DNA from: Haliotis rufescens
Taxonomy: Eukaryota
Direction: 5' to 3'
DNA: 64,000 bases
Assembly (NCBI RefSeq): GCF_023055435.1
Contig: NW_025963791.1
Span: forward strand, 23,808,001 to 23,872,000
Below, piece after piece: positions 6,285 to 58,324 of the stretch. A model generated the notes under the pieces. It saw only the letters and a program-made list of their open reading frames with translations, was not told where the DNA came from and searched no databases. How positions within the stretch are numbered: position 1 is the first letter of the stretch; every line of letters starts with the position of its first letter. The translations under genes were made by a program, and so were the position numbers.

Positions 6285-9158
6285 TCACAAGTTCGTGTCC
6301 GTTTCCAATTGTTTTGTAGGTTCCGTTTCTGTTTCAAAGCCGAGGTTTATAAAAGCAGTGGCCCTGGGAGGCGTGATGTCAGTATTCCCCTTCACCAGTA
6401 TGTGCCCCGAGGGTGGGGAGTTCTCGAGGGTGTGAGGGGTGCTGACTATGGACGTCTTGTGTGGGGGTTGATTCTGTAGGATAACACATAATAGTACATT
6501 ACTTTTATGGTAAGGTTATCGATACAATTAGTTTCAGTAATGCTCAGTCAGCATATTAGTTTTTGTTTTGCAAACTGACAAGTTTATGCCAGTGGTTCCA
6601 TTGTTTTCAATTGTCTGCGAAGTGGCAACGTTTCGTCATAGCTACGCATTGTCGCAACTGAGGATAGATGACATCATTCATTGTTCGTGACTTCGTTTCA
6701 GCAAAAGATTGACTGAGCTGAAGTCTCCACTAGTGATCGGGAGACACACATTTTTCAAAACCAATTCAAATAAGTGTCGAAACTTACAACATTAATTTTA
6801 CTCGGACACAGATACTCCCTAATTCACCACAGCCCGTAGGTTATAGGGCATTTTGATTTTCTTTGTATTTCAAAACTTGAAGGATTACGCATTTGCTGAA
6901 TATGAATCAGAGTGAGAGTTATTAATAAAAAGGTTTTCCGAGTTTTGTTTTGAATTGAAGTTTGTTGAAAGAATCATAATGCTCGGTATCTGCATATACA
7001 TAAAAGGCAAATAGTACCACGAACCAGACAAGGCGACAAGGGCGCAAGTGACAATGCCACACTCTCGGTAGCGATAAAGAAATCACTATTCGAGTCTTTG
7101 GGCAATCTGCTTGCATACAAACCCGTAACGTTATGGTTGTGACAGTGAAGATTGACGTAGTTAGCGTTACATGAAAGATAAACTTTCGGAAACAATATTA
7201 AAACGTTATAATGAGTAAACGCATTTTTAAAAAAATCGTTTTTACAGTCACACAGGTGGATATCATTATGTTTGTTTACTGTTTAAAAATGTAGCAATAT
7301 TCCAGCTACATGACCGCGGCCTCAAAATAATCGAGTCACAGCCAGACAAACCAGTGACTGGTATTATGAACAATATGTCACGCCTTCAGGGTACGATGAC
7401 ACGCAATCGACCACGTCACTGCGCCTGGCCATCGTTGCATCTAACGACATCTTACTGGGGTCTCTCCAGTCCCGGAATCTCTACTGACAAGTCATAATGT
7501 AGTTATGCTAATTGGAAAATAAATAATTAGTTTAAATACAGACATTACCACAGCACAATAAACTTACACGTCTATGGTTGACTCCACATCTGAGAGGTCG
7601 GAGTATCATCTCTGGCATGCAGAAGAAGAGCCGGTCAAACAGAGGACAGACTAGACGAGGGTCCATGGTCCGAGGATCTCTGCGGCCTATAACATGTCAA
7701 TCAGTATCTTACACAGAAGAAGAGACGGTCAAACAGAGGACAGACTAGACGAGGGTCCATGGTCCCAGGATCTCTGCGGCCTATAACATGTCAATCAGTA
7801 TCTTACATAGAAGAAGAGCCGGTCAAACAGAGGACAGACTAGACGAGGGTCCATGGTCCGATGATCTCTGCGGCCTATAACATGTCAATCAGTATCTTAC
7901 ACAGAAGAAGAGACGGTCAAACAGAGGACAGACTAGACGAGGGTCCATGGTCCCAGGATCTCTGCGGCCTATAACATGTCAATCAGTATCTTACACAGAA
8001 GAAGAACCGGTCAAACAGAGGACAGACTAGACGAGGGTCCATGGTCCGAGGATCTCTGCGGCCTATAACATGTCAATCAGTATCTTACACAGAAGAAGAG
8101 CCGGTCAAACAGAGGACAGACTAGACGAGGGTCCATGGTCTGAGGATCTCTGCGGCCTATAACATGTCAATCAGTATCTTACAAATGTTAAACATTTCTT
8201 TATATATGATACACCATTACAATGTGATGGTTTTAACACTGTTCTCCAAATAATGCGTTTAGTATTCATATCATTACCATCATAGTATCATAATTTATTT
8301 TACGACGTATTCCGGCTGTACCATAGCGTGAGAAAACGGCAATACCAGACGTTGTACCCATTTGGGAATCATTTGAGTGAGTGAGTGATATTTTTAGCAA
8401 TATAATCACGGCGGGGGACACCAGAAATGAGCTTCGCACATTGTACTCCTGTGGGTAATCGAACCTCTGGTTTGGGTGTGATGAGTGAACACGTTAACCA
8501 CCGAGCTAATCCTAAATCATCATAATTGTTTTTACGCCGTATTTTAGCTGAATTGTGTCGGGGGAAGACAGAAATAGGCTTCACACATTGAACCCATTTA
8601 GGAACCATACCTGTGAGTAAGTGGGTCGGTGAGTGAGTGAATGAGGGTTCATCACTGAAGTGGGGCGGTCGGGTAGCCGAGTGGTTAAAGCGGTCGCTCG
8701 TCATGCCGAAGACCCGGGCTCGATTCCCGACATGGGTACAATGTGTGAAGCCTAGTTCTGGTGTCCCCCTACGTTAAATTGCTGGAATATTGCTAAAAGC
8801 GGCGTAAAACCATACTCACTCACTCACTCATCATTGAAGAACACAACTCACCCGTGATGAGGCTGACGATCATACCGACGATGATCACCACGGCCATTGC
8901 TGCCGGAGTATAGTACAGGTAGGACAATTTGTACATCGGGAGAAATGGGTCCCTGGAAATACATAATCGATATTGTTGGTGCTAGAGTTTGATGTACAGA
9001 TATTTGCGGATTTGTGTCTTGTGATAAAGGCTCAACAGAAGTATGATTGGGGATGGAAAAAAATCATTTGTTTTGAAATATCAGAAAAAATGAAAACGTC
9101 CCCATTAAATGTTCGCTGGATATGTTAGGTATCCTGCCAAAAATGAGGTGGTGGTGGT

Positions 9159-9191
<33 letters not shown>

Positions 9192-12100
9192 GTGTGTGCA
9201 ATGATGAAATTGTTCGGTTTCACCTTTGACAGAAAGTAATTTGCGTGTTTTGACCGTGTTTTGTCTCTAACAGAAGTAGTACCCCCTCCCCATCAGCCCC
9301 ATCCCTCAGAATGTTACACGGTGGGTCCCTTTGCTGCCAGAATCCGATGTTACTGTTTCCCTGACCCAATGTGCTTCTTAAATTGCCAGCATAGTTTTTT
9401 TCAAGGTTTCCTTAAATGAAGTGACAAGTGCAAGAATAGTGAAAGAAACAATGAAGACACTCATAGGCTGTTTGACCCCTTGACATCTCACCTGGATCCC
9501 ATTGGTTCAACGGAACTGGTAAAAGGTGTAACAGTACTTGGCGTTAACAACGTCATTGTCGTAGTGATGTTCCAGTTGCATCCCTCAGTTGACGTAGGAA
9601 GCGGTGTACTTGTACGCACAGCGTTGACAAAGGCACCAAAGCCAATCCAGCACATGAATGCTAAGGAGGTGAGGCAACCGACGACAGCTCCCTTAAATAA
9701 ACACATCCAGGTATGCTTTAATTACGATAACATGTGTTTGTTGTTAAACGTTGCACTGAGTCATATGATGACGATGGCTTATAATTATTCGAGTTTGGAC
9801 CATAAACACAGTGATTCATATAATGAGCGTCCCATTACAATATCCCATGTCGTAAGATGACATATCTTAACCAAGTCACTGAGTCTGACAACCCGATCTA
9901 CATGTACCTGGTCGCCTCCAACGACAAGCATAGGTTGCTGGATACCTACTCCAACACGGAACACCACCGGTATGTGTTCGGTGGACACACATGGATCTAT
10001 CCTATTATTATGCATACTGTTTTAGAAAGTTGCATTGTAATTTTGACATAACAAAAACGAACTAATTTGTTAGACTAGGCGTTAAATATGCACAATTCTT
10101 ATTTTTCCTGCCTTTTCTTTTTTAAATAACTATTATTATTATTATTATTATTAATAACCATCGCTTAACGAAGGCACCAATGCTATTCAAACACATGAAT
10201 GCTAACGAGATGGGGCATCCAGGTATGCTTTAAGTACGATAACACGTGTTTGTTGTTTGACTTTGCACAGTGTCATATTCCAGCTATATTATGGCTTATA
10301 AATATTCGAGTCTCGGTCAGACAATCCAGTGAGTGATATTATGAGCAGCCACGCCGATGACACGTCATAAACCGAGTCACCGAGCCTGACCACTCGATCC
10401 ATTAAGTCGTCGTTGACGACCAGCATGCATGTTCGTGCCGGGGGATCTACTCAAACCCGGACAAATTAGATAAGAAATACGATCAATCTTTCAAAAAATT
10501 AAGATCATTCATCAACTCGTTAATAAGCAAGCTGTTTTGCTAATATAGCATAAGGGGCGGTCGGGTAACCTAGTGGTTAAAGCGGTGGCTCGTCACGCCG
10601 AAGACCCGGGTTCGATCCCCGACATGGGTACAACGTGTGAAGCCCATTTGTGGTGTCCCGCGCCGTGATATTGCTGGAATCTTGCTAATAGCGGCGTAAA
10701 ACCAAACTCACTCATTCACTAATATAGCATAAACAGTAATAACGAGCTGTTAAAAATTGATATCCCTAGGCCTCTTCAAGTTTTATATTAATGCTATGTA
10801 GAAGAAAATACAAAAATAATTTCCTACCCGAGCGTTCGCCCATGGAAAGAACATTCCCAGCACAAACAGCCCGAACGTTGGGCCGTTCAGAATACTGTAC
10901 ACAGTGTACGATGCCTGAAAACAAGAGGCATTCTATGGTTAAAAAAAGAAGAAGTTTTATATAATGCTTATAAAAAATCCTTTTCCTGCCAAGTTAATTT
11001 TACAACTAAGTGGATAGAAATGAAATAGAACATACGTGTATAAAGCGTCAACGCCAGAGAATAACAAGTCTCGATTACACGCCGAAACAGATTCCATCCC
11101 GAAAATGACAAAATAGGGATGAAAATTACATGAATGGATCACACTAATGAAGACATCTACAGAGTTCGGCTTCATAAATACTGACATACATGACGCCTGT
11201 AACATAATGAGGTCCGGACCACACAAACCACTTGTAGTTGTATAGACAAGAGCTCATATCAGGGTTGGTCTGCGCTTTATGTAAACCGTCTAAAATGACC
11301 GTGCCGAGCAGTCATCGTCACCGCTCAATTTACAACGTGATTCATACTATCTATCTCCTATGTATATACTGAAATACGACGAAGGCATATTTACCTGCAG
11401 TACACTGCCAAGCTGAGACACCACGAAAGCAAGGGCAATTGCCAAACAACCGCAAATAATAACTGAAAATATAAATAAATTTCCTTTCTTCAATCGTATT
11501 ACACATATCATTGTGAAAAATTAATGTGTGTAATGTACATTTTATTTGTAATTTCTATGCCGCCGTTTTCATTTGTGAAATCTTGGAGATATCTACTTAC
11601 CAATAATCCTAGAGAGAATGGCCATGCCTTTATCTGGGAGGTTCTTACAACAGAATGGCTTGATGAGATCGTGAGGGATCACTGCCCCGAGTGCGTTCAG
11701 ACCGGAAGACAGGGAACTGAATTAAAGCAGAGACGATGAATTAGATTAAAGGTAAATAATTAAAATAATTGTTAACTCATGTAAAAGGGTGATACAAAAT
11801 TATCTGCGATGTTGGATGGGAGTCAGGTGTTTGGTTCGAACTCAAGAATACAATATATCAATCGAGTAAGTAAGTGTCCGTTGAAGGAATAAAACAGTTT
11901 CACATACTGTAAATCTTGAAATTAATGCGAGAATGAAAATAATCCTAAAAACGGATTTACAAACTTGGTCAATAATAATGTGAAATTTGCGAAAACACAA
12001 CACTAGACATGATTTACCATTTTAATTGTGTTTCATGTTATGCAAGGCGTTATTTTATATGCAAAAAATAAGATTACCGTGTGAATTGTTTTGTAAACTA

Positions 12101-15100
12101 AGCCGCAAATAGCAACCAGCTGTACACGCATTTTCTCCAAGATCTACCGGTTATTCAGTTAAAAATACCCAATAATAGAAAGTATACGAATTTTGATGCA
12201 ATGATCGGAAGAAATTGTATCTGAAATTATTTTTTTTAGCATTTTAGGATGTGGTACTAGTTTTTTTTAAATCTATAAATCATGGAGTATAAGTAATGTT
12301 TGAGTGGCTAAATGAGAAGGGTCATAGAACGGGATACCCACCTGAGACTTCCACTGAAAATACAAGACATGAATATTCCAGGAATTCCTTGGAGGTGACC
12401 CAGGATGTCCATCACAAAGAGGGGCACCAACTGCGAGAGATGGAAACAATATTAGAAGAACACAATATGTATTGTCATCGTGGACGAATCTAAATGAACT
12501 AACTTTTGCATAAAGTTATGAATGTGATGTGATGTCAGTCATACATATATGAATGTACCAGTACTCTTTTCTTTATGCTGTTAATATACATAGTTTGAAG
12601 CTCAAAAAAGCTGCTTTCGTAGTGGCTAATGTCGACTTCCTGTTAGTCATTTCATTGGTCGGTCAAAGTTCGCGAAAGGTCGTTCTGATGACGTGACCTG
12701 CAATGGGATAGTCTCAGCAGTAGTGTGAACTTGTATCTGATTTTAATGAGATTGAGGTACCGGTAATCTAAGCATGTGATTAATTCTGTTTTGTTCATTT
12801 AAAGCAATGATTGTTAATTGTTGAGCAAGTTTATCTCTGCAGCCATAATATATCGGGACAGAGAAACGAGAAGCCTAAGAAATAATCTACATACAGTAAT
12901 ATATATGTATGTATGTATGTATGTGTATGTATGTATGTATGTATGTAGATTATTTCTAAGGCTCATTTCTCTGTCCCGATGCCCATCCCGATTCCGATAT
13001 CTTTTTAAATAAATTGTGTCATTGAATCCTATCATACATGTAGCGCCTACCTGATCTGTCTTGGTAACTAGCTTTTCAAAGTTGATGGGGTGGCAGTCGC
13101 TGTAGAAGGCAAACATGACGATGCCTATCATGCAACAAAGGCTGATAATACCGATGAGGCCAAACAGATTCAGGATCATTGCACTGTGTGGCAGAATAGG
13201 GTACACTTTAGGTACTGTATAATAATAATGTCATGGAAATACATCTATGAACAGAAAACTACACTGACTGTAAAACCATTCATTGCCTGTGTTGTGTATA
13301 TGTTTTCTTACACAAATATTGAATACGCTAGTTGATGTATTGTGCAAAAATAGTTGAATAGTTGACAATAACCAGCAATGCATAAATTCCCAGAATATGT
13401 TCATGTGTTGTGCCTCCATAGAAATACATGATATATGGCTATATGGTCTCTTGTTCGAAGGACTTAATTATGCTTCTGTTATGCTCAAAAGAAGTAAAAC
13501 GACAACTTTATGACTCCCTCATGGTCGCCCTGCATTTTCCGTACATTTGTGACTTGGAAACACTTGGACATGATATGGCTCTCTGGACTTGGGCTTGATT
13601 ACATCCATACAGCGACATCCAGAAGAAAGCTCCGCCTATCACAACCGACCAGAACGAGTGTCGAGTAGTCGGATCGAAGCTGAAACTGCAATGTGAAATA
13701 GAACATGAATTTCCATACAATGTTATAACTATCCCAGTTATTCTGAGCTTGGCCTATTTCGTTATTATGACGCTTGGTGTCGAAGCATCCCGTCCGTGCT
13801 CTTGGGTTAAACAGATGTCAGACGTCTACGACCTGTGTCAATTTGGGCTTCATGTCCACACTGAAGAAGGGTCTTTATTATGCTGAAATACATGTATAGC
13901 TCACACTCAATCACTCAAAACTAAAGAAACCAACTCATGAAAGTTAATCCTGGCGCGGCTACCGGCGATGTCCCAGGCGTTCTGGAAGCCGCCCATGACG
14001 ATGGAACCCTGGATGAGCACTGCCAACAGCCCGGCTAACATGACCAGTGCCTGGATGGTGTCTGTCCACAGCACGGCTTTCATACCACCCTGAATAATGG
14101 AGGGAACGTTTATTTAATGAATGTATTGTTTACAGCTGCTATTTGTTGTATTAATATTAAGTACAGTGTACGTATAGCTATTCTTATGTGGATACCTGGT
14201 TGATACATGCATGGTATAAGGACTTTATTTGCACTTCCAGACAGATAAAAAGGGGCCGAATTATTGTCACTTTAATAATAAACCAATGCTCCTTAAACGC
14301 CAATGAACCTAGGTGTTCATCTATCTAGTCTGGTATACAGATGCGTTGTTTACGTGTTTTTGTACCAGTATAGTGCGTGGTTACACGCCACAGTGTGATA
14401 CGTGTTTACCGAGTAGTATACAGAGGCATCGTTTACTTACCAGTGTAGTATACATAAGCGTTGTTTACATGTTTACCTATCCAGTGCAGTATGCAGATGC
14501 GTTGTCTACCTACCAGTGTAGAATGCAGAGACGATGTTTACGTGTTTACTTACCAATGTAGTATACAGAGTAACAACCCCACCAACTGCGCCAACCGATC
14601 CCCACAAAGAAAACCCAGTTACTGAAAATAGAGACGTTAAATATTAGGTATAACCCAGTCAGTTAGCATTCCTTTTGAAAAAAAACTATCAAAGATACAA
14701 AACAACAAATTCTGATAGTAATTCCTTTACTGATAACTAATAGGGTTTAGAGTAAGAAAATAACTCAAATACTTAAAAGTCTCAACAGGGGATGATCACC
14801 TGATAGATGACTAGTCGGGTTATTCAAATGTATGTTAAACTGGTCCCCGCCTCTTTATTGATAGTGCCCCCGCAATTTTATGGAATACCTTTTGGCTCCG
14901 TACAATGGTAGAATGGTTCCAAAGCCATAGATATGTAAAAGGAAAATGTTACTGTTGACTGTGGAAAAAAACTGTAAACGTTTACAAAGTGATAACGAAT
15001 AAAAACACACCAAGCACTCGGGATTTCTTTGACATGTAAGACAGAGGCTTGCTCAGACATGTATATACGAATGTGAGGATTGAGTATTTATCCCAGAAGT

Positions 15101-17803
15101 GGTAACCACTATCGAATGAGCATCACGTCATAACATGGTTGTCAGTTTCTAATACTAAGGAGGGGACTGTGTGTTTAACAAACGCGTTGTCAAATGCACA
15201 GTCGGCATATTGTAGCTGTGTCCCTGTAATGCTTATGTGGTCTAGTGGTAGAGCGTCCGCCCGGAGAGCGGAAGGTCCGGGGTTCGATCCCCGGCAGCGT
15301 CATACCAAAAGACGTTAAAAGATGGTACTTGTTGTTACCCTGTCTGGCGCTCGGCATTAAGGGGATAAACCAAGGACTGGTCGGGTTGGAGTCAGTATAC
15401 TGTGTCTGAGTGGGGTATTCATGTTAAACTGCGGCATGGTATCTCAGTGGGCTAGCACTATAAATCGGCATCAGTCCGGACTAGTACAAGCAGCCACACA
15501 AACACACACACGTACATGCACGTCGCTATATAAGTGCAATAATCTTGGACGCGACGTTAAACCCCATTTCACCTCACCTTTAATGCTTATAGTCTGGCCC
15601 AGCTGCAAGGCCAATCGGATTTGAATGCACCAGCTACAACCCACGCCTTCGAGATACAATGACACGCAATGTGCAAGCAAACAAACAAACAAACAAAAGC
15701 TTTTGAGTCGGCTCTTGCGACAGGTACGAGGAACTGGGGGACTATTTTGACCCGGAATCCCACAGAGTTAGAACATTCAAAACAGTCATGACGTATTTCA
15801 AATATTTTAGTCTACGCCAAGAAGATACAAACACTACATATAAAATACGCATTTAGTTCTTGCCAATTTGAAAATAGGATGTACAAGTACTATTGGACAT
15901 TCTTAAAAGCGCCCTGGAGTTTCCTAAGAAGTCATTGTTTGGAGGTTACAGTTTGGTTTATAATTAAAATCTCTATTGACCTATGTTAACCGACTTGTTT
16001 AAATCGCATAATGTGTTTGCATAGATTCACCGGTATATGTGTCAAATTCAAAGCTTTACTAACCTTCCCTAAACAAATCTCAACAAACATACCAGTGACC
16101 AGGTACGTTGTTACAGCCCCCTAACCCCATAAAATTATAACATTAACATTAACATTTACTAAACATTAACCTGCATTAACGGTTCTTAAAAATATACCGT
16201 TACTTGGATTCGAACCTTCACACACCGCTTGACATGGCATGACAGTCGTGTTCCAACATATTGATACTACCGACATATAACTTCGCCCTGCGCACTGTCG
16301 ACCAGTGCACACAGCTCGAGATCGCATTCAATTATATAACTTTATACCGTAGTCAGGGAACTGTTTCGGTTCAGTAGTTAGAAAGAAAACACTTTTATCT
16401 CCTTTGATGCCGGTTTGTATACTGTTACATCAACTGTGTGTGTGCTGCAAACGTACCTTGATTCAGTGCGAGGGAAGGTGCATACAAAACAAAGGACATG
16501 TATACAATCTGAAACGAAACACAACCGTTATAATGCGTATTTCATTAACACTGTGTTCCTAATTACAGTTAAAATATGTATTGCACATCTTGATAAGCAT
16601 AAATGACATGTTAATCCAGTTTATGACCATTTCATGAAATGTTAAATAAACTATAAAAAAGACGGTTTATTAACGTTTACTGGTCAATTGAAATTATGTA
16701 TCAATGCACGTCGTTCTATTTTTCTTTAATGATGTCCGACAATAATACTTTACGCAGTTTACATACTGTCTGAACGATGAAAGTGATGGAGGCGATAACG
16801 CGGACTGGTTTGCTGAATCGCAGCTCTAAATACTACAATTGAAGAAAACATACATGTGAGTGCACAATGAAATAAATATCATAGAGAGTAGCATTTGAGG
16901 CAAGAAAGAAACTATTCTGTCAACATATATGTTATCTTCCAAATGACGAATTAAGCTTGGGATTATTAAAAATGGTTGTCATGTGTCTAAACGTGAACCA
17001 TTAAACCCATTGTTATCATTGTACAAATGTGTTTAGAAATCTATGATATCGACCATTGAAGCAATGCATTTGGTGAGCATGTGAGTTGACGAAATACAAT
17101 ATCACGCAATATTATGCCAAAAGACGAATCTCTTTGCACGCTGAACATCAAAAGTAAAGACGATAGCTGGGAACATGGCGTATAATACACATTGGTATAT
17201 GAAAACAAGTTATTTATAACTACCACCAGTTTGTGAAAAGTCTTTTGTGTGATCTAACAAAGTATTGTATAGATGTTTGCGTTTTACAATAACGGATTTC
17301 ACAGAGACTTCATGCCTTTCAGCACACAGACTTGCATTCAAACAGATTATGTATATATGACTGTGGTACAAAACAACATTCATGCATTCACGATGTTTAA
17401 TGCGTGTCACACAGCAGATTCCTTCATTGAGACTTACCTCAAACATGCTTGTCAGGTTAAGCTTGTAAAAGAATGGAATGAAAATCTGGGACGAAATTGC
17501 GATGGCAATAATGAAAGCCAAACATATCCACCAAAACATAGTAGCATAGATATACATCTCAGCCGGTGCCCCCAACAACGTCAACGCAGACATAAACGTT
17601 GCCGTTAAAGACATCGCTACAGGTAGTGTGTACATTTTTCTGCCTCCCATGAGGTATTCATCGGAGGAAGATCTGTTTCTGTCCCTGATGGCGTAGAAGA
17701 GTCCAATCCCTGCCGATGTGACCAAAGTAAGGCCGAAGACGACATAGTCAGGGACTGAAAATGTCTTTTTCTTCCCAGTGTAGATACTGTAGTCTCCAGA
17801 CAT
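6285..17803 (-). CDS. SLC5A8-like: Gene B: complete SLC5 sodium:solute symporter (SMCT/SMVT-like), 15 exons, 649 aa
   Basis: GT-AG exons with consistent phases: 17803-17438, 16832-16767, 16508-16457, 14621-14554, 14089-13935, 13685-13545, 13183-13051, 12430-12342, 11716-11601, 11462-11395, 10914-10828, 9691-9492, 8952-8852, 7686-7568, 6473-6285 (sum 1950 nt). Motifs [55 protein letters not shown]; ends ETDTNL*. Confidence 0.93.
7621..8184 (-). repeat. 6 x 94-bp tandem array made of the gene B exon-14 acceptor plus the first 68 nt of the exon
   Basis: Units start at 7621, 7715, 7809, 7903, 7997 and 8091. The lowest-coordinate unit continues into the real exon 14. Confidence 0.95.
8662..8830 (+). 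mobile_element. tRNA(Asp-like)-derived SINE, family alpha
   Basis: A/B-box head (tagccgagtgg; ggctcgattcc), tail gctggaatattgctaaaagcggcgtaaaac(actc)n, TSD tcatca(c/t)tgaag. Degenerate inverted copies lie at about 8373-8640. Confidence 0.85.
9161..9188. repeat. Poly-G run of about 28 nt (poly-C run of similar size at 58293-58320)
   Basis: Directly visible homopolymers. Confidence 0.9.
10157..10460 (-). pseudogene. Degenerate local duplicate of the 5' part of gene B exon 12 and its upstream intron
   Basis: aaggcaccaa...cacatgaatgctaa...catccaggtatgctttaa.tacgataaca repeats 9620-9960, but the acceptor segment is deleted. Confidence 0.75.
10554..10720 (+). mobile_element. SINE family alpha
   Basis: Same consensus; 14-bp TSD ctaatatagcataa. 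Confidence 0.88.
12595..12760 (+). repeat. Unclassified interspersed repeat, second copy at 45935-46090
   Basis: Shared tgtcgacttc.tgttagtcatttca.tggtc.gtcaaagttcgcgaaaggtcgttctga...tctgattttaatgagattg. Confidence 0.75.
12855..12977. repeat. Inverted repeat (about 38-bp arms) with a (GTAT)n loop
   Basis: gggacagagaaa.gag..gcctaagaaataatctacatac / gtatgtagattatttctaaggctcatttctctgtccc. Confidence 0.85.
14315..14570 (-). repeat. Degenerate tandem repeat derived from the gene B exon-4 donor junction
   Basis: Recurrent gtttac(t/c)taccagtgtagtatacaga, the reverse of TATACTACA(C/T)TG|gtaagtaaac. Confidence 0.75.
15237..15579 (+). mobile_element. tRNA-derived SINE, family beta (central domain resembles the Meta/MESC-type SINE core)
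   Basis: A box tggtctagtgg, B box ggttcgatccc, core gtcataccaaaagacgttaaaagatggtac...ggcgctcggcattaagg, tail (cacct)n, TSD taatgcttat. The core assignment is from memory and was not searched. Confidence 0.85.
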
Positions 17804-32750: not shown

Positions 32751-32802
<52 letters not shown>

Positions 32803-41800: not shown

Positions 41801-44800
41801 CTAGACTACCAGTTGTCGGACTTTCATTTTTGTGGAAGCCTCAGTGGCTGAGTGAGTTAGATCGCTGACTTTGTGTGCTGGTGATTAGGTGCCTCACTCT
41901 GGCAGTGTCGGTTCGAATCCCGGACGGGACTCAACCCCTAAAAAAAGTACGAGAATCTCGTAGTGCCGTTTTCAAAACGTTGTTGCCGTCATGCTAGAAT
42001 GGAGATAAACCTACTGTGTTTTGAAATTTGATGTAGTTCGAATGTAGAGTAGATACCTCTTTATTATAATTTGGAACCTCGCGCTAAAGCTTTTCCTCGG
42101 CCATCGTTTTCTAAATTATGGTGGGCACAAAATGATGTTAGAAATATCTATTACTATTTTGCATGGATACTTTCACTTGAACGTGCAGTGTTATCAACAC
42201 GGTTCAAACTGGCTCTTTTCATCATATAGCCAAAGGCGTTGTGATACCGCTGCCTCTTGACAGGACCAAACACATACAAAATATAAACAAGATCTTCTTC
42301 AAAGCAGCAAACAGTTCACGTCGTTAAGACATTCATTTTTTCACATGGAGAATAGTACACAATTCCTATTCAATAATGATTTTGTAATAAAATTGTCGGT
42401 AAAATCGCTTTATTTTTTATATTAGTTTGTGAGGTGTGACATATAACGTTCTTTGTAAAGACTATGTTATCAAAAGTTCGTGAAGAAAGTATTAAGTATA
42501 TGTATTTGTATAAAAACGCTTGGGCAAATACAAAAGTGGTTGGTTCATACATTGTAGGGAGCTTTAGTGGGCGCTCTGACCTCCTTGGCCTTCATGTGCT
42601 GGATCGGATTTGGTGCATTCGCCAACAAGGTTTCCACTGCCAAACCTTCCCCTGTCTTCACTCACGGCTGCAACTGGTCCGTCACAACGACATCGATTAC
42701 TACCACTACAACACTAGGGACTACAACCACACCTTTTACGGGCTCAACCGAGATGACAACGGTTGAAGCGTCAAGGTATACAAAGTAGAATAGGTTTGTA
42801 TCGTTATTTCTCTTTCTCTGATGAGAATGTAGGAATCGGGTGATCTGAGGCTCCGCCTTTCGTTTAGCTGTACCCGGATTCGCTAGTCATATGTTTGAGA
42901 AATAGTGATCCACATATATAACTGTAAACTGTCTCAAACGGTAAATTTAATTATTCACCCCAACACCCAAACTTGCTCACTCATGTGCAAATGGAAAGGA
43001 GAGAATTAATGGTACACTTACATGTACATCGGGACCGTGAAGATCCGGAGTAGAATTGGTCTTCAACAACCCATGCATGCCGTAAAAGGCGAGTATGCTT
43101 GTCGTAAGATGCGACTAACGGGATCGGGTGGCCAGCTCGCTGACATGGTTGATGCATGTCATCGTATCTTAGTTGCGTGGATCGTTGCTTATGGTGTAAC
43201 TCACTGGATCGTCTAGTCCAGACTCGATTATGTACAGACCGCCGTCATATAGCTGGAATATTGCTGAGAGCGGCGTTAAACAACAAACAAACCGCCGAGA
43301 AGGCGGTAAAATCTTCTCACAATAAATGAATAAATGTCCCACTGACATGTTAGCCAATTTCGTATAGAGAAATACACGTTACCAAGCTGGCCTGACGAGG
43401 GTGTACAAATTTGTTGTTTGTTGTTTAACGCCGCACTCAGCAATATTTCAGCTATATGACAGAGGTCTGTAAATAATCGAGTCTGGACCAGACAATCCAG
43501 TGATTGGTGTCATGAGCATCGATCCAGAACAATTGGGATACGATTACATGCATCAACCAAGTCAGTTTTCCCACTTTCCAGTGGTCCTTTCATACCGACC
43601 TATTCCTACATTCCAGCGACCCGTTCATACCGATGTACAAGTTATCTTATCTCTACTACACGCCGACGGCGATGGCAGTGCTCGTCATCGTGGGATTGTT
43701 CGTTAGCCTCATCACGGGTCTGCTACCAAAGCTATTATTAATCAAAATTATTTTTGCTTAACATGTCGATATTTGCCGTGAGTAATGTACTGAATCTTTA
43801 TCACAACTAAAATAAGGTGCCATTTTTAAAAAAATAAGCCACAACAAACGCATTCTTCACAAATGTATTGACGGGCAATTACTAATGAATAATTATTCAG
43901 AATGTAACCGAACCTATATAATAGCTCTCAATGTTTTTCTTCTATTTTTTTTTCACAGTGAATACGAGAACTTTAGTGAATAGAATTCATCAAACTTTTA
44001 GTCACATTTTTCCATGTTTAAGGTTTGAGACGTCCGGAGAGCATTGACCCTCGTCTAGTCTGCCCTCTGTTTGACCGCCTCTTCCCCTGCTTGCCAGAGA
44101 TGATACTCAGGCCTCTCAGATGCGGGGTCAACTATAAAGGGGTAGGTCATAGCATACAAGTAACTGTATAACACCCTACAGATGGTCAGTCATTTAGGTG
44201 TTTAACGTCCAATGATAATTTCGTGGACGCGAGGACCTACACACAGTGACGACTACTCGACCCGTGAGGGAGTGAGGGAGTTGGGTTTAACGCCGCTTTT
44301 AACAGTATTCCAGTTATATCAGCTTAATGTGGGAGGAAAGCCCGAAGTGATGCAGGTCTCAGACGTTTACCACTTTGGTGAAACCCACGAGCCCGGGTAT
44401 GGTGCTGACAAACCTAGAAACATAATCGGGGAGAACCGGGATTCTGGCGTGCCCAAGGGACGCAACTCTGCACAGCGAATCGCGGCGCCTCAGACGACTG
44501 GGCCACCCGTGACCCCATTCGACCCTTGAAGATCCGGGGTAGAATAGGTCTTCAGCAACCCATGTTTGATGTAAAAGGCGACTATGCTTGTCGTAAGAGG
44601 CGACTAACGGGATCGGGTGGATCAGGCTCGCTGACTTGGTTGATACATGTCATGGTATCCCAATTGTGTGGATCGATGCTCATGATGTCAATCACTGGAT
44701 TGTCTGGTCCAGACTCGATTATTTACTGACGCCGTCATATAGGGGGAATAATGCTGAGTGCGGCGTTAAACAACAAACAAACAATCAAACAAAGACAACT

Positions 44801-47800
44801 ACTCGTGTTCACACTGACACATTTACCATTGTAGAACAGATTCTCGTCCAGAATCGCCCACGCGTGGTAAATCGCGAGTCTCTTGAACAGAGCAGTGCGT
44901 CATCTCGTTCCTCTACGAGAGAAAACCTGTGCAGTTTTTAACCTGTTTTGTTCAAGACATCGCTGTACTGTTGAAGGTACCGTAAAATCCCACATAAACC
45001 CAACTGACAATACCGAGGAGAGGCTGGATTTACTGCAATGTTGTTGTTGTTGTCTCTGTAGTATTTCAACAGAAATAAAATAGTTCAGCTACAAATCTCC
45101 GCCCACTGGACCAGACCCTTTTCCCGTGCTCTGATCCATGATAATAACGCCATCCTGTGTCTCCATGGGTCACAAAGTAGATGCAATTCATGGATTAGTT
45201 GGTTGGTTGGTTTGTTCTTTTAAGCCGCACTCCAGCTGTATGGCGGCGGTTCAATTCATGGAAAACAGATGGTAGAGAACTACTACTTTCATATGAAAGG
45301 CCAGCTTTACCTAAACCTTTGCAAACCTTACCTGTATACAGTAACTACTATATATTTATCAAACAGTCGCTATCGATGAATATTTTTCCAGTTGTGTTGA
45401 AGACACGCGGAGACGTATTTATGAAATGTGAAAGGGACGATTGCAGTTGTTATAACAATTGTTTTAACTTGCGCAACACACGAAACGAGCTTGTATGTCA
45501 CCAATCTCATCAAAATCAGATCTTAGTTCTCACTATCCCTAAACAAAGAACTGAGGACATCCCATTACTTCAGAATGACCTTTCCTCCGACCAATCAAAG
45601 TGTCGCTTACTAGATCATGAAAGTGACACTCGGAATGTGTTTTCTAATCATGCAAGCTCGAAAACGTTAACACGATGTATTCCGAACGACAGTTACGGCC
45701 CGTACGACTAATTCCGTCAAAATTATTGTCTATCTTTCGTCTAACATTTGAACGGAGGAGGCGTTGCACAGTACGTGGGAAGCACTGCCATACAATCTCA
45801 ATCACATATTAGTCCTTCCGGAATGTTCGTGTGTTCGGTTTTCAAACTTTTAATCGAGTACTGCGTCAACATATTTTTCAAGCTAGTCTGAAATGGAAGT
45901 CGCCAGGTTGAAACGAGTGCCATAAAGCTCGAGAAAGCTGCTTTCTAACTGGTTGATGTCGACTTCTTGTTAGTCATTTCAGTGGTCAGTCAAAGTTCGC
46001 GAAAGGTCGTTCTGACGTGACCCGTAATGGGTCCTCAGATCTTTGTTTAGCGGCAGCGAGAACTTAGATCTGATTTTAATGAGATTGGTATGTCACAGAG
46101 ACACTCTGACAGCGTACTGCGTACACATCCCGAATACTAGTAGCTGGACACACTACATGCTATTCCGTTACTGCCATATTGCGTTTACAGTAGAAATAAA
46201 GTTACTTTCTTCCTCCGCTCTCTGGTCATGGTTTGAAAAGTTGATATGATACTATCGTCACGCCACATACAGTAAACTACGTTTATAACGAATATGCTCA
46301 TAAAGAAATGACCGATGTAACAAACCTATGTTTCAGTCCCGGCCATTTGTTGTATATATGCTGTATATATGCTTATAACGAACTACGGTTTTTACGAACT
46401 CAAATTAGTGGTCCCTTTGAGTTCGTTATAACCGTAGTTTACTGTAGCTGTTTCAACATGCAGTTAGGAAAAATTGGTAGGTTGGTTTGTTGTTTTACGC
46501 CGCTCTCAGCAATATTCCAGCTATATGACGGAGGTCTGTATATAATCGAGTCTGGACTAGACGATCCATGGCCAGTGAGTTACACCATAAGCAACGATCC
46601 ACGCAACTAAGATACGATGACATGCATCAACCATGTCAGCGAGCCGGGCCACCCGATCCCGTTAGTCGCATCTTACGACAAGCATACTCGCCTTTTTCGG
46701 CAAGCATGCATGGGTTGTTGAAGACCAATTCTACTCCGGATCTTCACGGTCCCAATGTACATGTAAGTGTACCATTCTCTCCTTTCCACGCAATTGGGAT
46801 CGATGACATGCATCAACCAAGTCAGCGAGCCTGACCACCCGATCCCGTTAGTCGCCTCTTACGACATGCATAGTCACCTTTCACAGCAGGCGTGGGCTGC
46901 TGAAGACCTATTCTACCTGGAATATTGCTGAGTGCGGCGTTAAAAACAAACAAGCAAACAAATAAATCTTTATGAGAGATCTCAATCATATCAGAAGAAG
47001 TCAACTTTTTGTCCTAACGCTGACGGTATTTCCTTAGACTTTACAAGCCGTTTGATCTATCTTGTTTGTCGTGTTTCTTCACTGTTACTCCCCTGACATT
47101 TTTGCACGCTCTGAGCATGAAATATGTATGTATATATTCACGTTAGAAATGGAATATTCTTTATGTTGTTATAATTAGTTATTTTATCAGTTGAAACAGC
47201 GTCGCCAGGTCGTCGTTTTGGACTGTGACATGATCATTTTTTCATGGAATCCACCCGCTCCAGCAATGGACATGTGTCGTTTCATATTTGCATTATTTTC
47301 GATTTTGATTTCAGATGCGTGGAAATCTCAATGACACTTCCACCACCAAACAAGGGCAAGTAACTCTATTAAGTAAAGGTAGGTGAAGCTGAAATTATTC
47401 ATGTCGTATAATTAATCCAAGCCAAAAAAACAAACATTTGCGTTTGCTCACAGTTTTCAGTCTCGTTTCACTTGGACCCAGCTGCTTGTTACTTGAGGCG
47501 ACCTGATGGATCGGGAATTTGTTTTGAAACTATTTATTTTGTTAGCTACATCTGCACAGCCAGATATTGTTCAATAAAACTGAAAGCATAAATATATTTA
47601 AACAAAACAAGATTGTATTTTTTTGGCACACAATTTCTAGTTTTCTAATAAAAATGGTCAGTCCCTAAGTAAGACCTATTTGAATTTTAATCTTTCAAAC
47701 TTTTTCTATCCTTGTTAAAATGTTTTTTTGTTTTTTGGGGGTTTACGCCGCACTCAGCAATATTCCAGCTATATGACGGCGGTCTGTAAGTAGTCGAGTC

Positions 47801-49456
47801 TGTACCAGACAATCCAGTGATTTACATCATGAGCATCGATCCACGAAATTGGGATCGATGACATGCATCAACCAAGTCAGCGACCACCCGATCCCGTAAG
47901 TCGCCTTTTATAAAAAGCATAGTCGCCCCTTGTGAAAATACCCAAACCATGAAAAGAAATACACAATAGACTTGTTACCCATCAACACCTCTCAATGAAA
48001 CTAATGAAATATATTTTCCATCGTTCTTCTACCATTTTGAAAATACCATAAGCGATCGATTGTAGTGTTGCCACATCCATTTTCATTGAATTGTTTTTTA
48101 TATGTTCTTATAATTGCATTCTGAACGGGTGTGAAGTCAGATCCAGATTTAGTTTATTTAGAATTCAAGGCCATCTGACCGATAGTATATTATATATATC
48201 TAAAATGTAACATATATCAGTGTTTATATCAGTGTCAGGGGCGGATTGTTATCTTGTTTGTTTGTTGTTTTAACGCCGCACTGAGCAATTTTCCAGCTAT
48301 ATGACGGCGGTCTGTAAATAATCGAGTCTGGACCAGACAATCCAGTGATTGACAGCATGAGCAGACTATACCAGACCCACGAAGATTCCGGGTTAGAATA
48401 GGTTTTCAGAAACACATGCTTGCCGTAAAAGGCGACAATGCTTGTCGTAAGAGGCGACTAGCGGGATCGGGTGGTCAGGCTCGCTGACTTGCTTGATGCA
48501 AGTCATCGTATCCCAATTGCGTGGATCGATGCTTATGATGTCAATCGATGGATTGTCAGGTCCAGACTCGATTATTTACAGACCGTCATATAGCTGGAAT
48601 ATTGCTGAGTTCGACGTTAAACCAATCATCATAACAACCAACCAACCTTAGTTCCGATTTTGCAGTTTTAAGTATCAGGTCCTTATCACGAACTGGAGCG
48701 GTCAGGTAGTCTAGTGGTTAAAGCGTTCGCTCGTCACGCCGAAGACCCGGGTTTGATTCCCGACATGAGTACAACGTGTGAAGCCCATTTCTAGTGTCCC
48801 GGATATTCCTGGAATATTGCTAATAAGGGCGTAAAATCAAACTCACTCACTCACTCTACAGACGAACTTAACAATTATAGGTGAAGGGGAGTACCGACAT
48901 ATCAGCCTATGTGCTATGTGACTAACTGAATATGACCGGTAGCTAGTCTCTCCGGTTGAGTACGTTCCTATGTTTGTATCTTCTTCTTATACTGTCCCGG
49001 TTTGCTTTAATATGAGGGGGCACGGGTGGCCCAGTCGTCTAAGGCGCCGCGATTCGCTGTGCAGAGTTGCGTCCCTTTGGCACGCCAGAAACCTATGATT
49101 GTGGGTTCGAATCCCGGTTCGCCCCGATTATGTTTCTAGGTTTGTCAGCACCATACCCGTGCTGATGGGTTTCACCGTAGTGGTAAACGTCTGAAACCTG
49201 CATCACTTCGGGCTTTCCTCCCACATTAAGCTGACAAGCAGTGATGTAACTGGAATAGTGTTAAAAGCAACTCCAACTCGCTCACTCACGTTTACTTCTT
49301 TGATAGAATGCCTACGCTCACTCACTTTAATATGACCCTATTAATATCAAAGTTAAACTTTCACTTAAGTTCCAGAAGAACGGGAAACAGATATATAAAA
49401 AGCTGACGAATCACCAGAGAAGATCCAGCCTATCGATTACTATGGTGTCGACGTAG
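22593..49456 (+). CDS. SLC5A8-like: Gene C: SLC5 sodium:solute symporter, 15 exons, about 619 aa as assembled; last exon frameshifted relative to paralog D
   Basis: Exons 22593-22958, 25147-25212, 25795-25846, 26193-26260, 28103-28257, 28363-28503, 29564-29696, 31643-31731, 33382-33497, 39898-39965, 40793-40879, 42558-42775, 43617-43717, 44023-44141, 49376-49456. All are GT-AG with the same phases as gene B. Exon 1 is nearly identical to gene A. Confidence 0.92.
23900..24220. mobile_element. Two divergent delta fragments
   Basis: Minus copy 23900-24066, plus copy about 24085-24220. Confidence 0.75.
24345..24890. repeat. About 32-bp minisatellite, roughly 16-17 copies, gene C intron 1
   Basis: Unit tacagtaaggtac(g/t)ttgatctcctgttatac(g/t). 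Confidence 0.92.
26721..26893 (-). mobile_element. SINE family alpha, nested in a Helentron-like repeat
   Basis: Full-length reverse copy; TSD tcttctccaag. Confidence 0.88.
27004..27370. mobile_element. Penelope-like pLTR remnant with about 42-bp inverted repeat and degenerate hammerhead
   Basis: aagtaaggataagatttatggatgaacaacttctttattaca (about 27006-27047) is the exact reverse complement of 27286-27327; an HHR-like motif lies on the minus strand at 27055-27093. Confidence 0.6.
28545..28581. repeat. (GT)n microsatellite
   Basis: Directly visible. Confidence 0.9.
28750..29200 (-). mobile_element. Degenerate Penelope-like retroelement RT fragment
   Basis: ORF 28934-29170 encodes [30 protein letters not shown], resembling the PLE RT C-terminal NFPFLSSNIP.APAYGVYISQLIRYARACS pattern. 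Confidence 0.75.
29770..30830. repeat. 37-bp minisatellite, more than 20 copies with decayed ends, gene C intron 7
   Basis: Unit cacactggtaatttaatatgccagatctttatctc(c/g/a)a. Confidence 0.93.
32678..33048 (-). mobile_element. SINE family beta with expanded internal (CA)n
   Basis: Reverse copy with the B-box region deleted; (GT)n at about 32755-32800. Confidence 0.85.
34343..34615 (+). mobile_element. SINE family beta (internally deleted)
   Basis: TSD ccagtt(t/c)gtattca; the empty site is present in paralog D near 61145. Confidence 0.87.
35578..35838 (-). mobile_element. Delta element, full length
   Basis: Matches consensus; further fragments at 35250-35500, 25248-25385 and 40276-40396. Confidence 0.85.
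36330..37225 (+). mobile_element. 5'-truncated, degraded LINE (RT C-terminus plus CCHC knuckle; RTEX/CR1-group-like)
   Basis: [14 protein letters not shown]...[21 protein letters not shown], then [10 protein letters not shown]...[17 protein letters not shown]. Confidence 0.75.
37230..38720 (+). mobile_element. Second degraded LINE of the same type, interrupted by a beta SINE
   Basis: [11 protein letters not shown] (YADD-like), [51 protein letters not shown]. Confidence 0.78.
38127..38461 (-). mobile_element. SINE family beta inserted in a LINE remnant
   Basis: TSD g(t/c)cattagaaatag at 38113-38126 and 38462-38475. Confidence 0.88.
38850..39780 (-). mobile_element. Tc1-family transposase remnant (C-terminal half and one end)
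   Basis: Minus strand: LTYFQQD ... [20 protein letters not shown] ... ALQAEW ... SMRRRC ... GGHTRY*. A Tc1-like terminus (aaaaaagaaacgcaaa) lies near 38855. Confidence 0.8.
39240..39750. repeat. Low-complexity (TTC)n-CATGACTCT minisatellite inside the Tc1 remnant
   Basis: Variable-length unit ctctcttcttcttcatga. Confidence 0.93.
41835..41960 (+). mobile_element. tRNA-like SINE head of a further family
   Basis: A box tggctgagtgag and B box ggttcgaatccc; no clean cloverleaf. Confidence 0.5.
43033..43292 (+). mobile_element. Delta element
   Basis: Shares private substitutions with the inverted copy at 46480-46752; a partial minus copy lies at 43410-43565. Confidence 0.85.
44268..44511 (-). 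mobile_element. SINE family gamma
   Basis: Reverse copy of the 49016 consensus. Confidence 0.82.
44521..44790 (+). mobile_element. Delta element
   Basis: Full-length consensus match. Confidence 0.85.
46268..46446. mobile_element. Tc1/mariner (pogo/Tigger-type) MITE
   Basis: About 23-bp TIRs cagtaaactacgtttataacgaa / ttcgttataaccgtagtttactg, flanked by TA. Confidence 0.82.
46480..46962 (-). mobile_element. Delta element plus adjacent delta fragments
   Basis: Consensus match on the reverse strand. Confidence 0.82.
47740..48647. mobile_element. Cluster of delta elements (47740-47930 -, 48255-48362 -, 48375-48647 +)
   Basis: Consensus matches in both orientations. Confidence 0.8.
48697..48855 (+). 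mobile_element. SINE family alpha
   Basis: Head ggtagtctagtggttaaagcgttcgctcgtcacgccgaagacccggg and (actc)n tail. Confidence 0.82.
49016..49324 (+). mobile_element. tRNA-derived SINE, family gamma
   Basis: Head ggggcacgggtggcccagtcgtctaaggcg...ggttcgaatcc, body ttcgggctttcctcccac, (actc)n tail, TSD ctttaatatga. Ends about 50 nt upstream of gene C exon 15. Confidence 0.85.
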
Positions 49457-49954
49457 AAGTAGGTGACGTGAAAGGTGGCGCCATTAATCCAGGATTTGAC
49501 CCGATAGGCGAGGAGACCTCAGAACCGGAAGAATTTGTTACACATAGATTTTTGAAATCACAATTTCATCTTTATCATAAAAATTAATATTTCTGTACTT
49601 GTAATGCCATTACCCAAATCATTTCATTCTGTTTTTGTAATTGTTGTCCTGCTAGCTTCTTCTCAGTGACAAACGTCTGTACATATTAACATTATACAGC
49701 CTTCGTGACGAGCTGGTGTCAGTCGCATAAACTCCATTGCTTGTAGAATCATAATCTTTACCATTAGTTGGAACAAAAACAATCTCTTACAATCCAGGAC
49801 ACAGCTGATTTCAACATGCTGACAGATTTATGTATTTAAACTTACAACCGTCGTGTTGTCTTCAGTTTAATGTTCATAGTTACAGACAAGTATGTGTATC
49901 ATGAAACTGAAACTCTCTTGTTATTTAATAATGATTCAATGCTTCTGATTATAA

Positions 49955-50889: not shown

Positions 50890-51450
50890 TTATTATACCC
50901 CTGACCTATAGTTACATCAAGGAATTCCGTCCGTCATTCTTTGTGCGACCTATAACTTGAAGACTACTGTATGTAGATTCTTTTCAAACTTGGTGAACTC
51001 TTTTCATAGTTATAGGAGAGGTGCAGTGCTAAGTTTGATTTCAATATTTGGATTTTCTGAAAAGAATACATCGTTTCTTCATTTCCTGATTTAGAATGTT
51101 TTTACTGAAACATTTGTGCGACCTATGACTGGAAAACTACCTAATGCATTCTTTTTTAAAATTAAGGATCATTTTCCATGGTAATAGAAGAGGGTATAGT
51201 TCAAAGTTTAATTTTGATATGTGTATTTTCTGAACAAGAAATATGATTTTTTTTATGTTTTGAACTTGAATATTTTTTTACTTTAACATTTGTGCAACCT
51301 TTTACTTAAAAATTACTTCATGGATTCTTTTCCGATTGGGGGTACAGTTTATATACCAATAGGACAGGTGCAGTGCATAGTTTGATTTTGATAAGTAGAT
51401 TTTCTGAGAAAATATTGCTTTTTTCATGTTTCATGTTTGAGACCTGCTCA
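50890..51450 (+). mobile_element. Helentron/HINE-type element with three internal repeats of about 175 bp
   Basis: Start ttattatacccc, ccgtccgtc microrepeat, tttgtgc(g/a)acct recurring at about 50940, 51113 and 51289. Confidence 0.65.
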
Positions 51451-51639
51451 TTTTTTGTTTTGTTTTCTATGTAATGGTAATTTACGTAAATAAAGGCACA
51501 GAAGAATCAAATTGTGTTGTCAATTGATTAGCACTTTTAAAAATGTAACTTTTTTCTCAAAATCCAGTCTCACAATTAACTTTCTAATTACAATACGACG
51601 GATGAATATGTTTCTTCCGAGCACGCACCAGTGGAGTTC

Positions 51640-52955: not shown

Positions 52956-53005
52956 GAAATTGTGATTTCAAACAATTCTCTTCTTGTTTGTATTCCAGAC
53001 ACCTT

Positions 53006-56000
53006 TTACAAATGTGTAACTAATTCTTCCGGTTTCGAGGTTTCCTCGCCTATCGGGTCAAAACATCGATCAATGGCGCCACCTTTCACGTCACCTGCTT
53101 CTACGTCTGCGGGCGACTCAACGACGTAGTGATCGGACTGGATCTTCTCCGGTAACTCGTCAGGTTCTTCAAGATCCTGTTTCCTGTACTTCTGAAGATG
53201 AAATATAAGGGTTAATGTTAATAACCTATGTGAATGTTGCTGTACAATAGAAAGAGTACAGAAAGACAAGTCGTTAGTGCAGAGTAGCGTCCCTCACAAG
53301 ATCCACCCTGATTTATCTTGGTTGGTTGGTTTGTTGTTGAACGCCGCACTCAGCAATATTCCATCTACATGTATATGACGGCGGTCTGTAAATAATCAAG
53401 TCTGGACCAGACAATCCAGTGATTATTATGAGCATCGGTCCACGCCATTGGTATCGATGACATGCATCAACCACGTCAGCGAGCCTGACCACCCAATCCT
53501 GTTCGTCGCCTGTTACGGCAAGCATGGGTTGCTGAAGACCTATTCTTCCCGGATCTTCACTGACTTATGTCTCCAGGTTTAACCAAAGTGGTAAACGTCA
53601 TTCATAGTGCATCCCTCCAACATTATGCCTACTTAAATACTACTTAAAGTGGCATTATATCTCAATTACTGTAAACACGTACGTCCAGAATGGTATTCTT
53701 AGCAAACAGACCCGTGAAGATCAAGGGTAAGAGTAGGTCTTCAGCAACCCATGCTTGCCGTAAAAGGCGACTATGCTTGTCGTAAGAGGCGTCTAACGGG
53801 ATAGTGTGGTCAGGCTCGCTGACTTGGTTGATGCATGTCATCGTATCCCAATTGAGTGTGGATCGGTGCTGATGATGTCAATCACTGGATTTTCTGGTCC
53901 AGACTTGATTATTTACAGACCGCCGTCATATAGCTTGAATATTGCCGAGTGAGGCGTTAAACAGCAATTAAACGAACGAAACGAAACACAACCAAAGCTG
54001 CTGTTTCTGCAGCCTGTGTTCAACATGTGACTTGCGGTTGAAGTCAGGATGTCGCTGTCAGACAAGACAATGCACTTGTGCATTGTACTCGTGCATGCAA
54101 ATGTGCATCAGAAGACCAATGTCTCAACCCTAACAATGCTGATAGAAGTGAAAGTGATGTGGAATAGACACGGAATGTTGTCACTGACTTCCTGGTAAAT
54201 TTCTGTGAAAAAGGCCTGAGGCCATAAACATGTGTACATTTGATGAGATTACGTTACATGCATGCTGTGACCTACCCTCTTATGTTTGACCCCGCATCTG
54301 AGAGGTCTGAGTATCATCTCTGGCATACAAGGGAAGAGGCGGTCAAACAGAGGACAGACAAGACGAGGGTCAATACTCTCTGGCCGTTGCAAACCTTAAA
54401 CATGACAAAAAAAGACAAAAGGTTTGATGAATTCTATTTACCAAAATGACTAATTAAAATTATTTGTTGGGAAAACATTAAGAGCTATAAGATAGGTGTG
54501 GTTACTTTCTGCATACTTATTCATTAATAAAGCTTGTCAATGCATTTGTGACAAAAAAATTAAAAAGTTGATGAATTCTATTTACCAAAATGACTTACTA
54601 AAATGATGCATTCATTTTGGCTTATTTCATTAAATCTGGCATCTAATATTATTTTAGTAATGTTTTCAATATATTAATGACAGCAAATATCGACATGTTT
54701 AGCATATATGACAACTGGTTAATAATAGATTCAGTAGCAGACCAGTGATGAGGCTGACGAACAATCCCACGATGACGAGCACTGCCATCGCCGTCGGCGT
54801 GTAGTAGAGATAAGATAACTTGTACATCGGTATGAACGGGTCGCTGAAATGTAGGAGTACACAGGCATTTACGGATTGCTGGAAAATAGGAACCCATCGG
54901 TATGAACGATCACAGACAAATAGGAACACATCGGTATGAACGATCACGGACAAATAGGAATACATCGGTATGAACGATCACAGACAAATAGGAACACATC
55001 GGTATGAACGATCATAGACAAATAGGAACACATCGGTAAGATCGAATCTCTGGTAAGTATTCATCGGTTTGAACGGATCGCTTGTTTGTAGGATATATGT
55101 ACGTCAGTGTGAACGGATCGCTTGTTTGAAGGATCATATATGTACGTCAGTGTGAACGGATCGCTTGTTTGTAGGATATATGTACGTCAGTGTGAACGGA
55201 TCGCTTGTTTGTAGGATATATGTACGTCAGTGTGAACGGATCGCTTGTTTGTAGGATATATGTACGTCAGTGTGAACGGATCGCTTGTTTGTAGGAATAT
55301 ATGTACGTCAGTGTGAATGGATCGCTTGTTTGTAGGATATATGTACGTCAGTGTGAACGGATCGCTTGTTTGTAGGAATATATGTACGTCAGTGTGAACG
55401 GATCGCTTGTTTGTAGGATATATGTACGTCAGTGTGAATGGATCGCTTGTTTGTAGGAATATATGTACGTCAGTGTGAACGGATCGCTTGTTTGTAGGAT
55501 ATATGTACGTCAGTGTGAACGGATCGCTTGTTTGTAGGATATATGTACGTCAGTGTGAACGGATCGCTTGTTTGTAGGGTATATGTACGTCAGTGTGAAT
55601 GGATCGCTTGTTTGTAGGAATATATGTACGTCAGTGTGAACGGATCGCAGGAACATAGAAACATACCGGAATGAACGGATCACTGGACAGAAGGAATTTG
55701 TAAACGAAACGCAACAGAAAATTTATGTTTTTAAACACTTCGATCATATTGATGTTTGAAAATTGAAGTCGGGTGGGTTGGGAGCACCAAGGTATATTGA
55801 GTGAGGGATTTAGATTGAATTGAGTCATTAGGTTGGTACGGTTTTGCGCCGCATTAAGCAATATTCCAACCTTTTCACAAGGCCACTAACCTTGAACCAC
55901 AAGGCCACCCCAACACCCAACTGAGTTGGGGAAGGCGGTAAAAGCGTTGATCTAAAACGAACTACACACAATGAATGAATTGCTTATTATAGCGTCACAC

Positions 56001-58292: not shown

Positions 58293-58324
<32 letters not shown>

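Follow-up and report, generated by a model that had tools for sequence, protein, structure and literature searches.

Minisatellites of exon edges and splice sites in an abalone SLC5 gene cluster that is ordinary for its genome

Minisatellites whose repeated unit copies an exon-intron boundary of the host gene are known from amphioxus as mirage minisatellites. The parts of those reports that we draw on describe them in Adh3, the globins BflGb6 and BflGb9, troponin C and PGBD5, state that they leave splicing undisturbed and call their mechanism unclear (PMC3087553, PMC3902484). In the human F7 gene, the pertinent section of the report places the donor of intron 7 within the first unit of a 37-base-pair (bp) variable number tandem repeat (VNTR), where the first donor wins and the downstream pseudo-donors are silent (PMC1557585). 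Human genes in segmental duplications, according to the portion of that study used here, carry variable internal tandem repeats at exon-intron boundaries, often with alternative transcripts or new introns (PMC2812944). Here we analyze a window of 64,000 nucleotides (nt) from the abalone Haliotis rufescens (G000:C13:23808001-23872000) that holds four paralogues of the SLC5 (sodium:solute symporter) family, called A to D. Three of its arrays, at the acceptor of B exon 14, the donor of B exon 4 and the acceptor of D exon 13, are mirages: the unit of each spans a boundary of the host gene and many copies keep AG or GT. In both arrays of gene B the extra copies are intronic, with the complete exon standing at the end of the series, and the same polarity prevails in the survey described below.

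We consider it probable, at roughly 0.7, that these three arrays are minisatellites of exon edge and splice site such as occur at about 1 in 40 junctions in unrelated genes, and that they are tolerated by-products of minisatellite-rich introns, not splicing regulators. The structure is known in kind, and the cluster is ordinary for its genome. As in the amphioxus cases, to the extent that the parts cited above describe them, boundary copies stand in tandem at 5' or 3' splice sites, units measure tens of bp to ~150 bp, and many but not all copies keep AG or GT; the amphioxus examples are gene-by-gene cases, whereas in the abalone, a gastropod, mirages at 2,192 junctions were counted and compared with a null. 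The F7 VNTR, as far as the cited section goes, is the closest model for B exon 4 and for the donor majority in the abalone, although two of the three window cases lie on the acceptor side. With the segmental-duplication genes, as that portion of the study presents them, the abalone shares minisatellite-sized units at exon boundaries in groups of paralogues, yet none of those transcript outcomes was seen in the abalone and the rate in the paralogue cluster is no higher than in dynein genes. We found no molluscan mirage and no junction count of this kind in the open-access full-text literature. What our analysis adds is a frequency, ~2.4% of the junctions in 62 gene segments, together with a donor excess of 2:1, which a pre-specified held-out set upheld, and the crowding of ordinary arrays at exon edges; if the donor excess is true genome-wide, it would give an inexpensive way of testing first-site-wins splicing rules in an invertebrate.

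The survey covered 1.53 Mb of other genes in the same genome, in 26 SLC5 segments, 16 dynein heavy-chain segments and a held-out set of 20 segments retrieved once the hypotheses were on record; the 2,192 junctions all lie outside the window's genes. Exons were annotated with a purpose-written spliced aligner whose splice matrices were trained on the window, and which, given a limpet protein with ~49% identity to the B orthologue, found all 26 of the junctions in B introns 1-13 and missed exon 15. The detection of duplications, at offsets of 10-1,000 bp, was blind to exons, and dispersed repeats were masked through cross-gene matches. Junction-spanning events were found at 52 of the 2,192 junctions, divided into 13/538 in other SLC5 genes, 29/1,142 in dyneins and 10/512 in the held-out set, and inspection of the anatomy of the hits showed most to be clear mirages with 2 to more than 100 copies. 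Their polarity is nearly uniform, with 37 donors having downstream copies and 18 acceptors having upstream copies against 2 + 2 of the opposite kind (55 vs 4).

Genes B, C and D together carry such events at 3 of 86 junctions, a number that includes two false junctions around a false 28-nt exon called by the aligner in gene C and a part of D outside the window. This rate is like that of the dyneins (Fisher P=0.49). Against chance, the three genes have 3 tandem arrays where 1.0 is expected (P=0.05-0.06), and with spaced pairs included the expectation is 1.6-2.1 (P=0.20-0.36), so that the window alone is borderline to unremarkable. A sequence-only reading of this DNA had drawn attention to a coincidence of at least five independent duplications with exon boundaries in the cluster. 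All five that it listed exist close to where it placed them, yet only the three mirages span a junction, while the copy related to B exon 12 and the pair before D exon 14 do not; independence is overstated for D exon 13, where the same older duplication is found in paralogues A and C. It left uncounted three long arrays of gene C that do not derive from a junction. The reading's own worry about ascertainment was well placed, with two of five cases failing and non-junction arrays left out.

Whether junctions as a whole attract such arrays depends on how chance is modeled. Under the null reported here, which uses measured unit footprints and collapsed arrays, the tandem arrays outside the window's genes number 46 against 38.8 expected with repeat elements excluded (1.18x, P=0.12) and against 32.3 with repeat elements kept (1.42x, P=0.008). 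Adding spaced pairs gives 51 vs 47.6 (1.07x, P=0.31), and the held-out set alone, with 9 vs 7.7-10.1, has no overall excess. Events on two or more annotated junctions (two in the discovery set and two held-out, all doubtful exon calls), units longer than 300 bp and fully exonic events were dropped before these tests, and one event of opposite polarity was not scored as a hit. The overall junction excess is thus 1.1-1.4x and dependent on the null; an intermediate null gave 1.4-2.0x, and when the comparison is restricted to within 250 nt of exons the junction excess is gone (ratio 0.73-0.92). A first, loose null had given 32 vs 16.8 for the dyneins (P=0.0006) and was rejected as inflated, since it kept repeat-element DNA in the denominator while dropping its events and underestimated the unit footprints. 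None of 73 repeat-element events lies on a junction, against 9.6 expected.

Donors and acceptors behave differently, the whole of the excess lying on the donor side. Donor-spanning arrays number 33 vs 15.9-19.1 expected (1.7-2.1x, P=0.00005-0.0013), whereas acceptor-spanning arrays number 13 vs 16.4-19.7, and the held-out set is split 8 donors to 1 acceptor (binomial P=0.04). The ratio of about 2:1 persisted under three detection settings, one that left out the low-complexity filter and two that used other thresholds (P=0.015-0.027), and was 20:9 (P=0.06) in the better-annotated genes. Two donor mirages in neighboring paralogues are one inherited event, and counting them once gives 35:16 in place of 36:16 (P=0.011). 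The chance comparison that the sequence-only reading had called for comes out close to chance for junctions taken together and above chance for donors.

Arrays that lie wholly within introns are also crowded near exons. Within 40 nt of an exon there are 76 purely intronic arrays where 32-34.1 are expected (held-out 21 vs 8.5), with the excess at both intron ends (2.1x and 2.2x). With strict exon filters the count is 30 vs 14.3, and the contrast with the zone at 41-250 nt weakens to P=0.049. In a within-intron test array edges were enriched 2.0x within 15 nt of the exon and 1.45x within 40 nt; arrays of more than three copies gave 1.54x (n=195) and those of three copies or fewer 1.15x (n=67, P=0.35). 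The offsets of array edges are spread from -70 to +60 nt with no single spike at the splice site. A quarter (25%) of 1,096 introns contain a tandem array, the density staying at 0.22-0.26 arrays per intron up to 1.2 kb of collapsed length, and among 276 intronic arrays 17% take up 70% or more of the intron that holds them. The deep-intron expectation used in these comparisons could be too high if long introns contain low-copy elements or decayed arrays that went unrecognized. A bias toward exon edges, as had been proposed, is present at a modest level genome-wide, and it is specific neither to splice-junction DNA nor to the SLC5 cluster.

In the array at B exon 14 each 94-bp unit joins 27 intronic nt to 67 nt from exon 14, and when the copies are read in transcript order the complete exon comes last. 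The AG is retained in 6 of 6 copies, giving decoy acceptors at 8156, 8062, 7968, 7874 and 7780 and the real acceptor at 7686. Contigs of X16 and X15, two runs guessed to be RNA, contain the joint 6473-7568 and cover the whole of the 119-nt exon. They extend beyond 7687 by 176 and 116 letters that are unlike the repeat spacer and are probably exon 13. The decoy acceptors were not seen in these two RNA contig sets, which hide rare isoforms; the absence of RNA cover at 7695-7720 was not counted as evidence by itself. In copy 4 (7808-7874, minus strand) a single G>A creates a weak donor (17th percentile), hence a possible 68-nt frame-shifting pseudo-exon.

The same array bears on the public annotation. 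The NCBI model P0001, of 573 amino acids (aa), ends in an exact read-through of decoy copy 2, and P0122, the model from H. cracherodii and also of 573 aa, in an exact read-through of copy 1, its Q variant included, while the full tail is present in P0002, the orthologue from H. asinina. We infer that the array is older than the split of H. rufescens and H. cracherodii. The 573-aa models are probably annotation artefacts, in which short junction reads were mapped to the nearer identical copy. Acceptor mirages appear to truncate public gene models, gene B having 573 aa in two species compared to 649 aa from the real exons. The 94-bp unit stands at several times single-copy depth in the DNA contigs of two runs, at ~3x in X1 (one variant) and at 4x + 2x in X12, which is from a second species; these depths are compatible with several copies.

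At the B exon-4 donor the units combine the last ~14-18 nt of exon 4 with the donor and intron sequence and are degenerate, being ~78% alike. Three decoy donors reach the 10th percentile of real donors or better, and two of these outscore the real one; at the level of gene models, the first donor is the one used by both the open 649-aa frame and P0001. At D exon 13 the units derive from the acceptor plus ~23 nt at the start of the exon, in one array of 34 bp x 4.8 (54884-55045) and another of 40 bp x 14.3 (55070-55648), with the 5'-most acceptor-like copy at 55682. The 40-bp units keep the AG and are poor in the pyrimidine tract, and only two upstream AG sites reach the 10th percentile. What paralogues A and C share with D is a shorter, older version of this duplication. 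In the B exon-12 case the source consists of a repeat-element remnant, intron 11 plus the 5' stretch of exon 12; in the copy a 29-nt deletion across the acceptor has left the exon sequence present and the junction gone, and the blind test did not score it. The D pre-exon-14 pair contains zero exon bases and ends ~10-30 nt from the D exon-14 acceptor (54394).

Behind the observed anatomy, frequency, polarity and donor excess we envisage a sequence of birth, growth and selection. A local duplication of 25-150 bp would arise through slippage or template switching during repair, and one that includes a splice site would survive if one complete exon remains; because one complete exon must remain, donor copies would accumulate downstream and acceptor copies upstream. 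Growth would follow by ordinary unequal exchange, with arrays replacing intron sequence up to the constrained splice signals, so that array edges would crowd at exons. Among donors the spliceosome would take the first, and among acceptors the one that belongs to the sole complete exon. Decoy donors come after the real donor and would be ignored; decoy acceptors come before the real acceptor, would do harm more frequently and would be removed by selection more often, which is our proposed source of the 2:1 donor excess.

The main rival is that duplications arise or expand preferentially at exon edges, either through recombination or repair that starts in exons shared by highly divergent alleles and slips at the limit of homology, or through R-loops or paused polymerase causing breaks at 5' splice sites. 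We regard it as unlikely, even though arrays are constant per intron and not per base, the edge excess was replicated in the held-out set, and donor-spanning arrays exceed the null while selection can only remove them. Against it stand the lack of a spike exactly at the splice site, the near-chance figure for arrays of three copies or fewer compared to longer ones, the equal intronic excess at both intron ends, and the spaced single duplications, which are not enriched at junctions (4 vs 6.8-11.9). Of the birth bias offered by the sequence-only reading, then, the edge excess was seen, and the simple duplicates are not clearly enriched. That reading's other proposal, that arrays are kept as splicing modulators in the form of decoy sites, poison exons or truncated-tail isoforms, found no support and is very unlikely: the B exon-14 array is common to another species, models of two species end inside it, the copy-4 donor could define a frame-shifting exon and two B exon-4 decoys outscore the real donor, yet the full exon 14 is the only form in the two RNA contig sets, units decay at B exon 4 and in D, where the pyrimidine tract is lost, mirages are equally frequent in single-copy dynein genes, and acceptor mirages are, if anything, depleted. 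Highly improbable is an origin particular to the cluster, by ectopic exchange between SLC5 paralogues that begins in conserved exons and is badly resolved at exon edges; the three events in B, C and D and the one common to A, C and D would fit it, but all SLC5 genes together (16/624) match the dyneins (29/1,142; Fisher P=1.0) and the rest of the same cluster has 4/202. Least probable of all is an assembly artefact, to which near-identical tandem copies are prone, as the B exon-14 copies differ by point changes, the unit has multiple-copy depth in contigs of both X1 and X12, and the protein model of the other species ends with an exact copy-1 read-through.

Several points count against the reading of the arrays as tolerated by-products. 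The edge excess is equally open to biased birth or exon-anchored recombination, and the simple duplicates (n=67) are too few to separate these. The sample covered just two gene families, P values were left uncorrected across several null models, and the donor excess in the held-out set is weak by itself (8 vs 3.9-5.1, P=0.04-0.13). The RNA evidence concerns one of three arrays, comes from contigs that drop rare isoforms and is drawn from runs only guessed to be RNA, and two NCBI models do use decoy acceptors, which we take to be probable mapping artefacts. A bolder and rather doubtful extension of these results is that abalone minisatellites are seeded per exon edge, not per base, via exon-anchored recombination or repair, with donor arrays reflecting the raw birth rate and acceptor arrays the survivors of selection; roughly a thousand or more mirages genome-wide, a figure projected from a rate of 2.4% per junction in two gene families, might then serve as a natural experiment on spliceosome choice among identical sites.

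Features of the window, with positions counted from its first letter
Feature	Position	Strand	Details
Gene A, exons 1-2	172..1368	-	rest of gene left of window; 100% to P0005
Gene B	6285..17803	-	15 coding exons; SLC5 (SSF family) transporter; 649-aa open frame with real exon 14
B exon 14	7568..7686	-	119 nt; spliced to exon 15 (acceptor 6473)
Mirage at B exon-14 acceptor	7620..8183	-	6.0 x 94 bp, 96% matches
B exon-12 copy	10157..10460	-	spaced, 79% identical to 9624-9950; no junction today
Mirage at B exon-4 donor	14314..14570	-	real donor 14554; decoy donors 14514, 14477, 14441
Gene C	22593..49550	+	SLC5 paralogue, 15 coding exons
32-bp intronic array, gene C	24346..24876	.	not junction-derived, counter-example
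37-bp intronic array, gene C	29815..30826	.	matches dispersed repeat family, counter-example
18/60-bp intronic array, gene C	39240..39755	.	142 nt before exon 10, counter-example
Old degenerate exon-13 acceptor copy, gene C	43576..43616	+	same duplication in A; underlies D array
Gene D, exons 9-15	53006..62220	-	rest of gene outside window; 100% to P0009
D pre-exon-14 pair	54403..54607	-	61-bp direct repeat, 146 bp apart, purely intronic
Mirage at D exon-13 acceptor	54821..55700	-	real acceptor 54843

The exons of the window were set by protein homology and GT/AG sites, and canonical splice sites are present at 36/36 donors and 36/36 acceptors used. Gene B is identical to P0001, a named Haliotis rufescens protein, at 561/563 residues (99.6% over 563 aa); its exon 5 matches Pfam PF00474 above the cut-off and full-length homology is also present, placing it in the SLC5/SSF family. 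Gene D agrees with P0009, likewise a named Haliotis rufescens protein, at 282/282 residues. The last exon of gene C (49376-49550, plus strand, acceptor 49376) has a one-base frame shift at an A-run at ~49397-49401 relative to D and the homologues, leading to a stop at codon 620, and this is either a homopolymer error of the assembly or an altered tail.

Two other places in the survey were observed to be rich in such events. In four SLC5 paralogues a mirage sits at the donor of an 89-nt exon; its units are of at least three kinds, and arrays reach up to ~140 copies and 4 kb (the G000:C13 paralogues starting at 23898463 and 23935434, L021-L024 and L107; also L123-L124 and L137-L138), and this donor is possibly a recurrent hot spot, the numbers being small. 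The dynein segment G000:C79:4590001-4640000 (L065-L069) has six junction-spanning duplications, five of them at donors, and is denser than the window.

Among the remaining repeats of the window, a dispersed family of ~270 bp occurs in many copies that are 85-92% alike, for example at 19168-19437, 35579-35843, 44521-44799, 52197-52429 and 59867-60122, and other dispersed families lie at 15237-15579 and 8651-8835; ~29% of the intronic sequence of B, C and D has matches in other genes of the sample. Self-inverted stretches are found at 12852-12980, 50164-50279, 46381-46439 and 53318-53980, the last made of two opposite copies of the ~270-bp repeat. Between genes C and D there is a degenerate tandem repeat of ~173 bp at 50940-51431.

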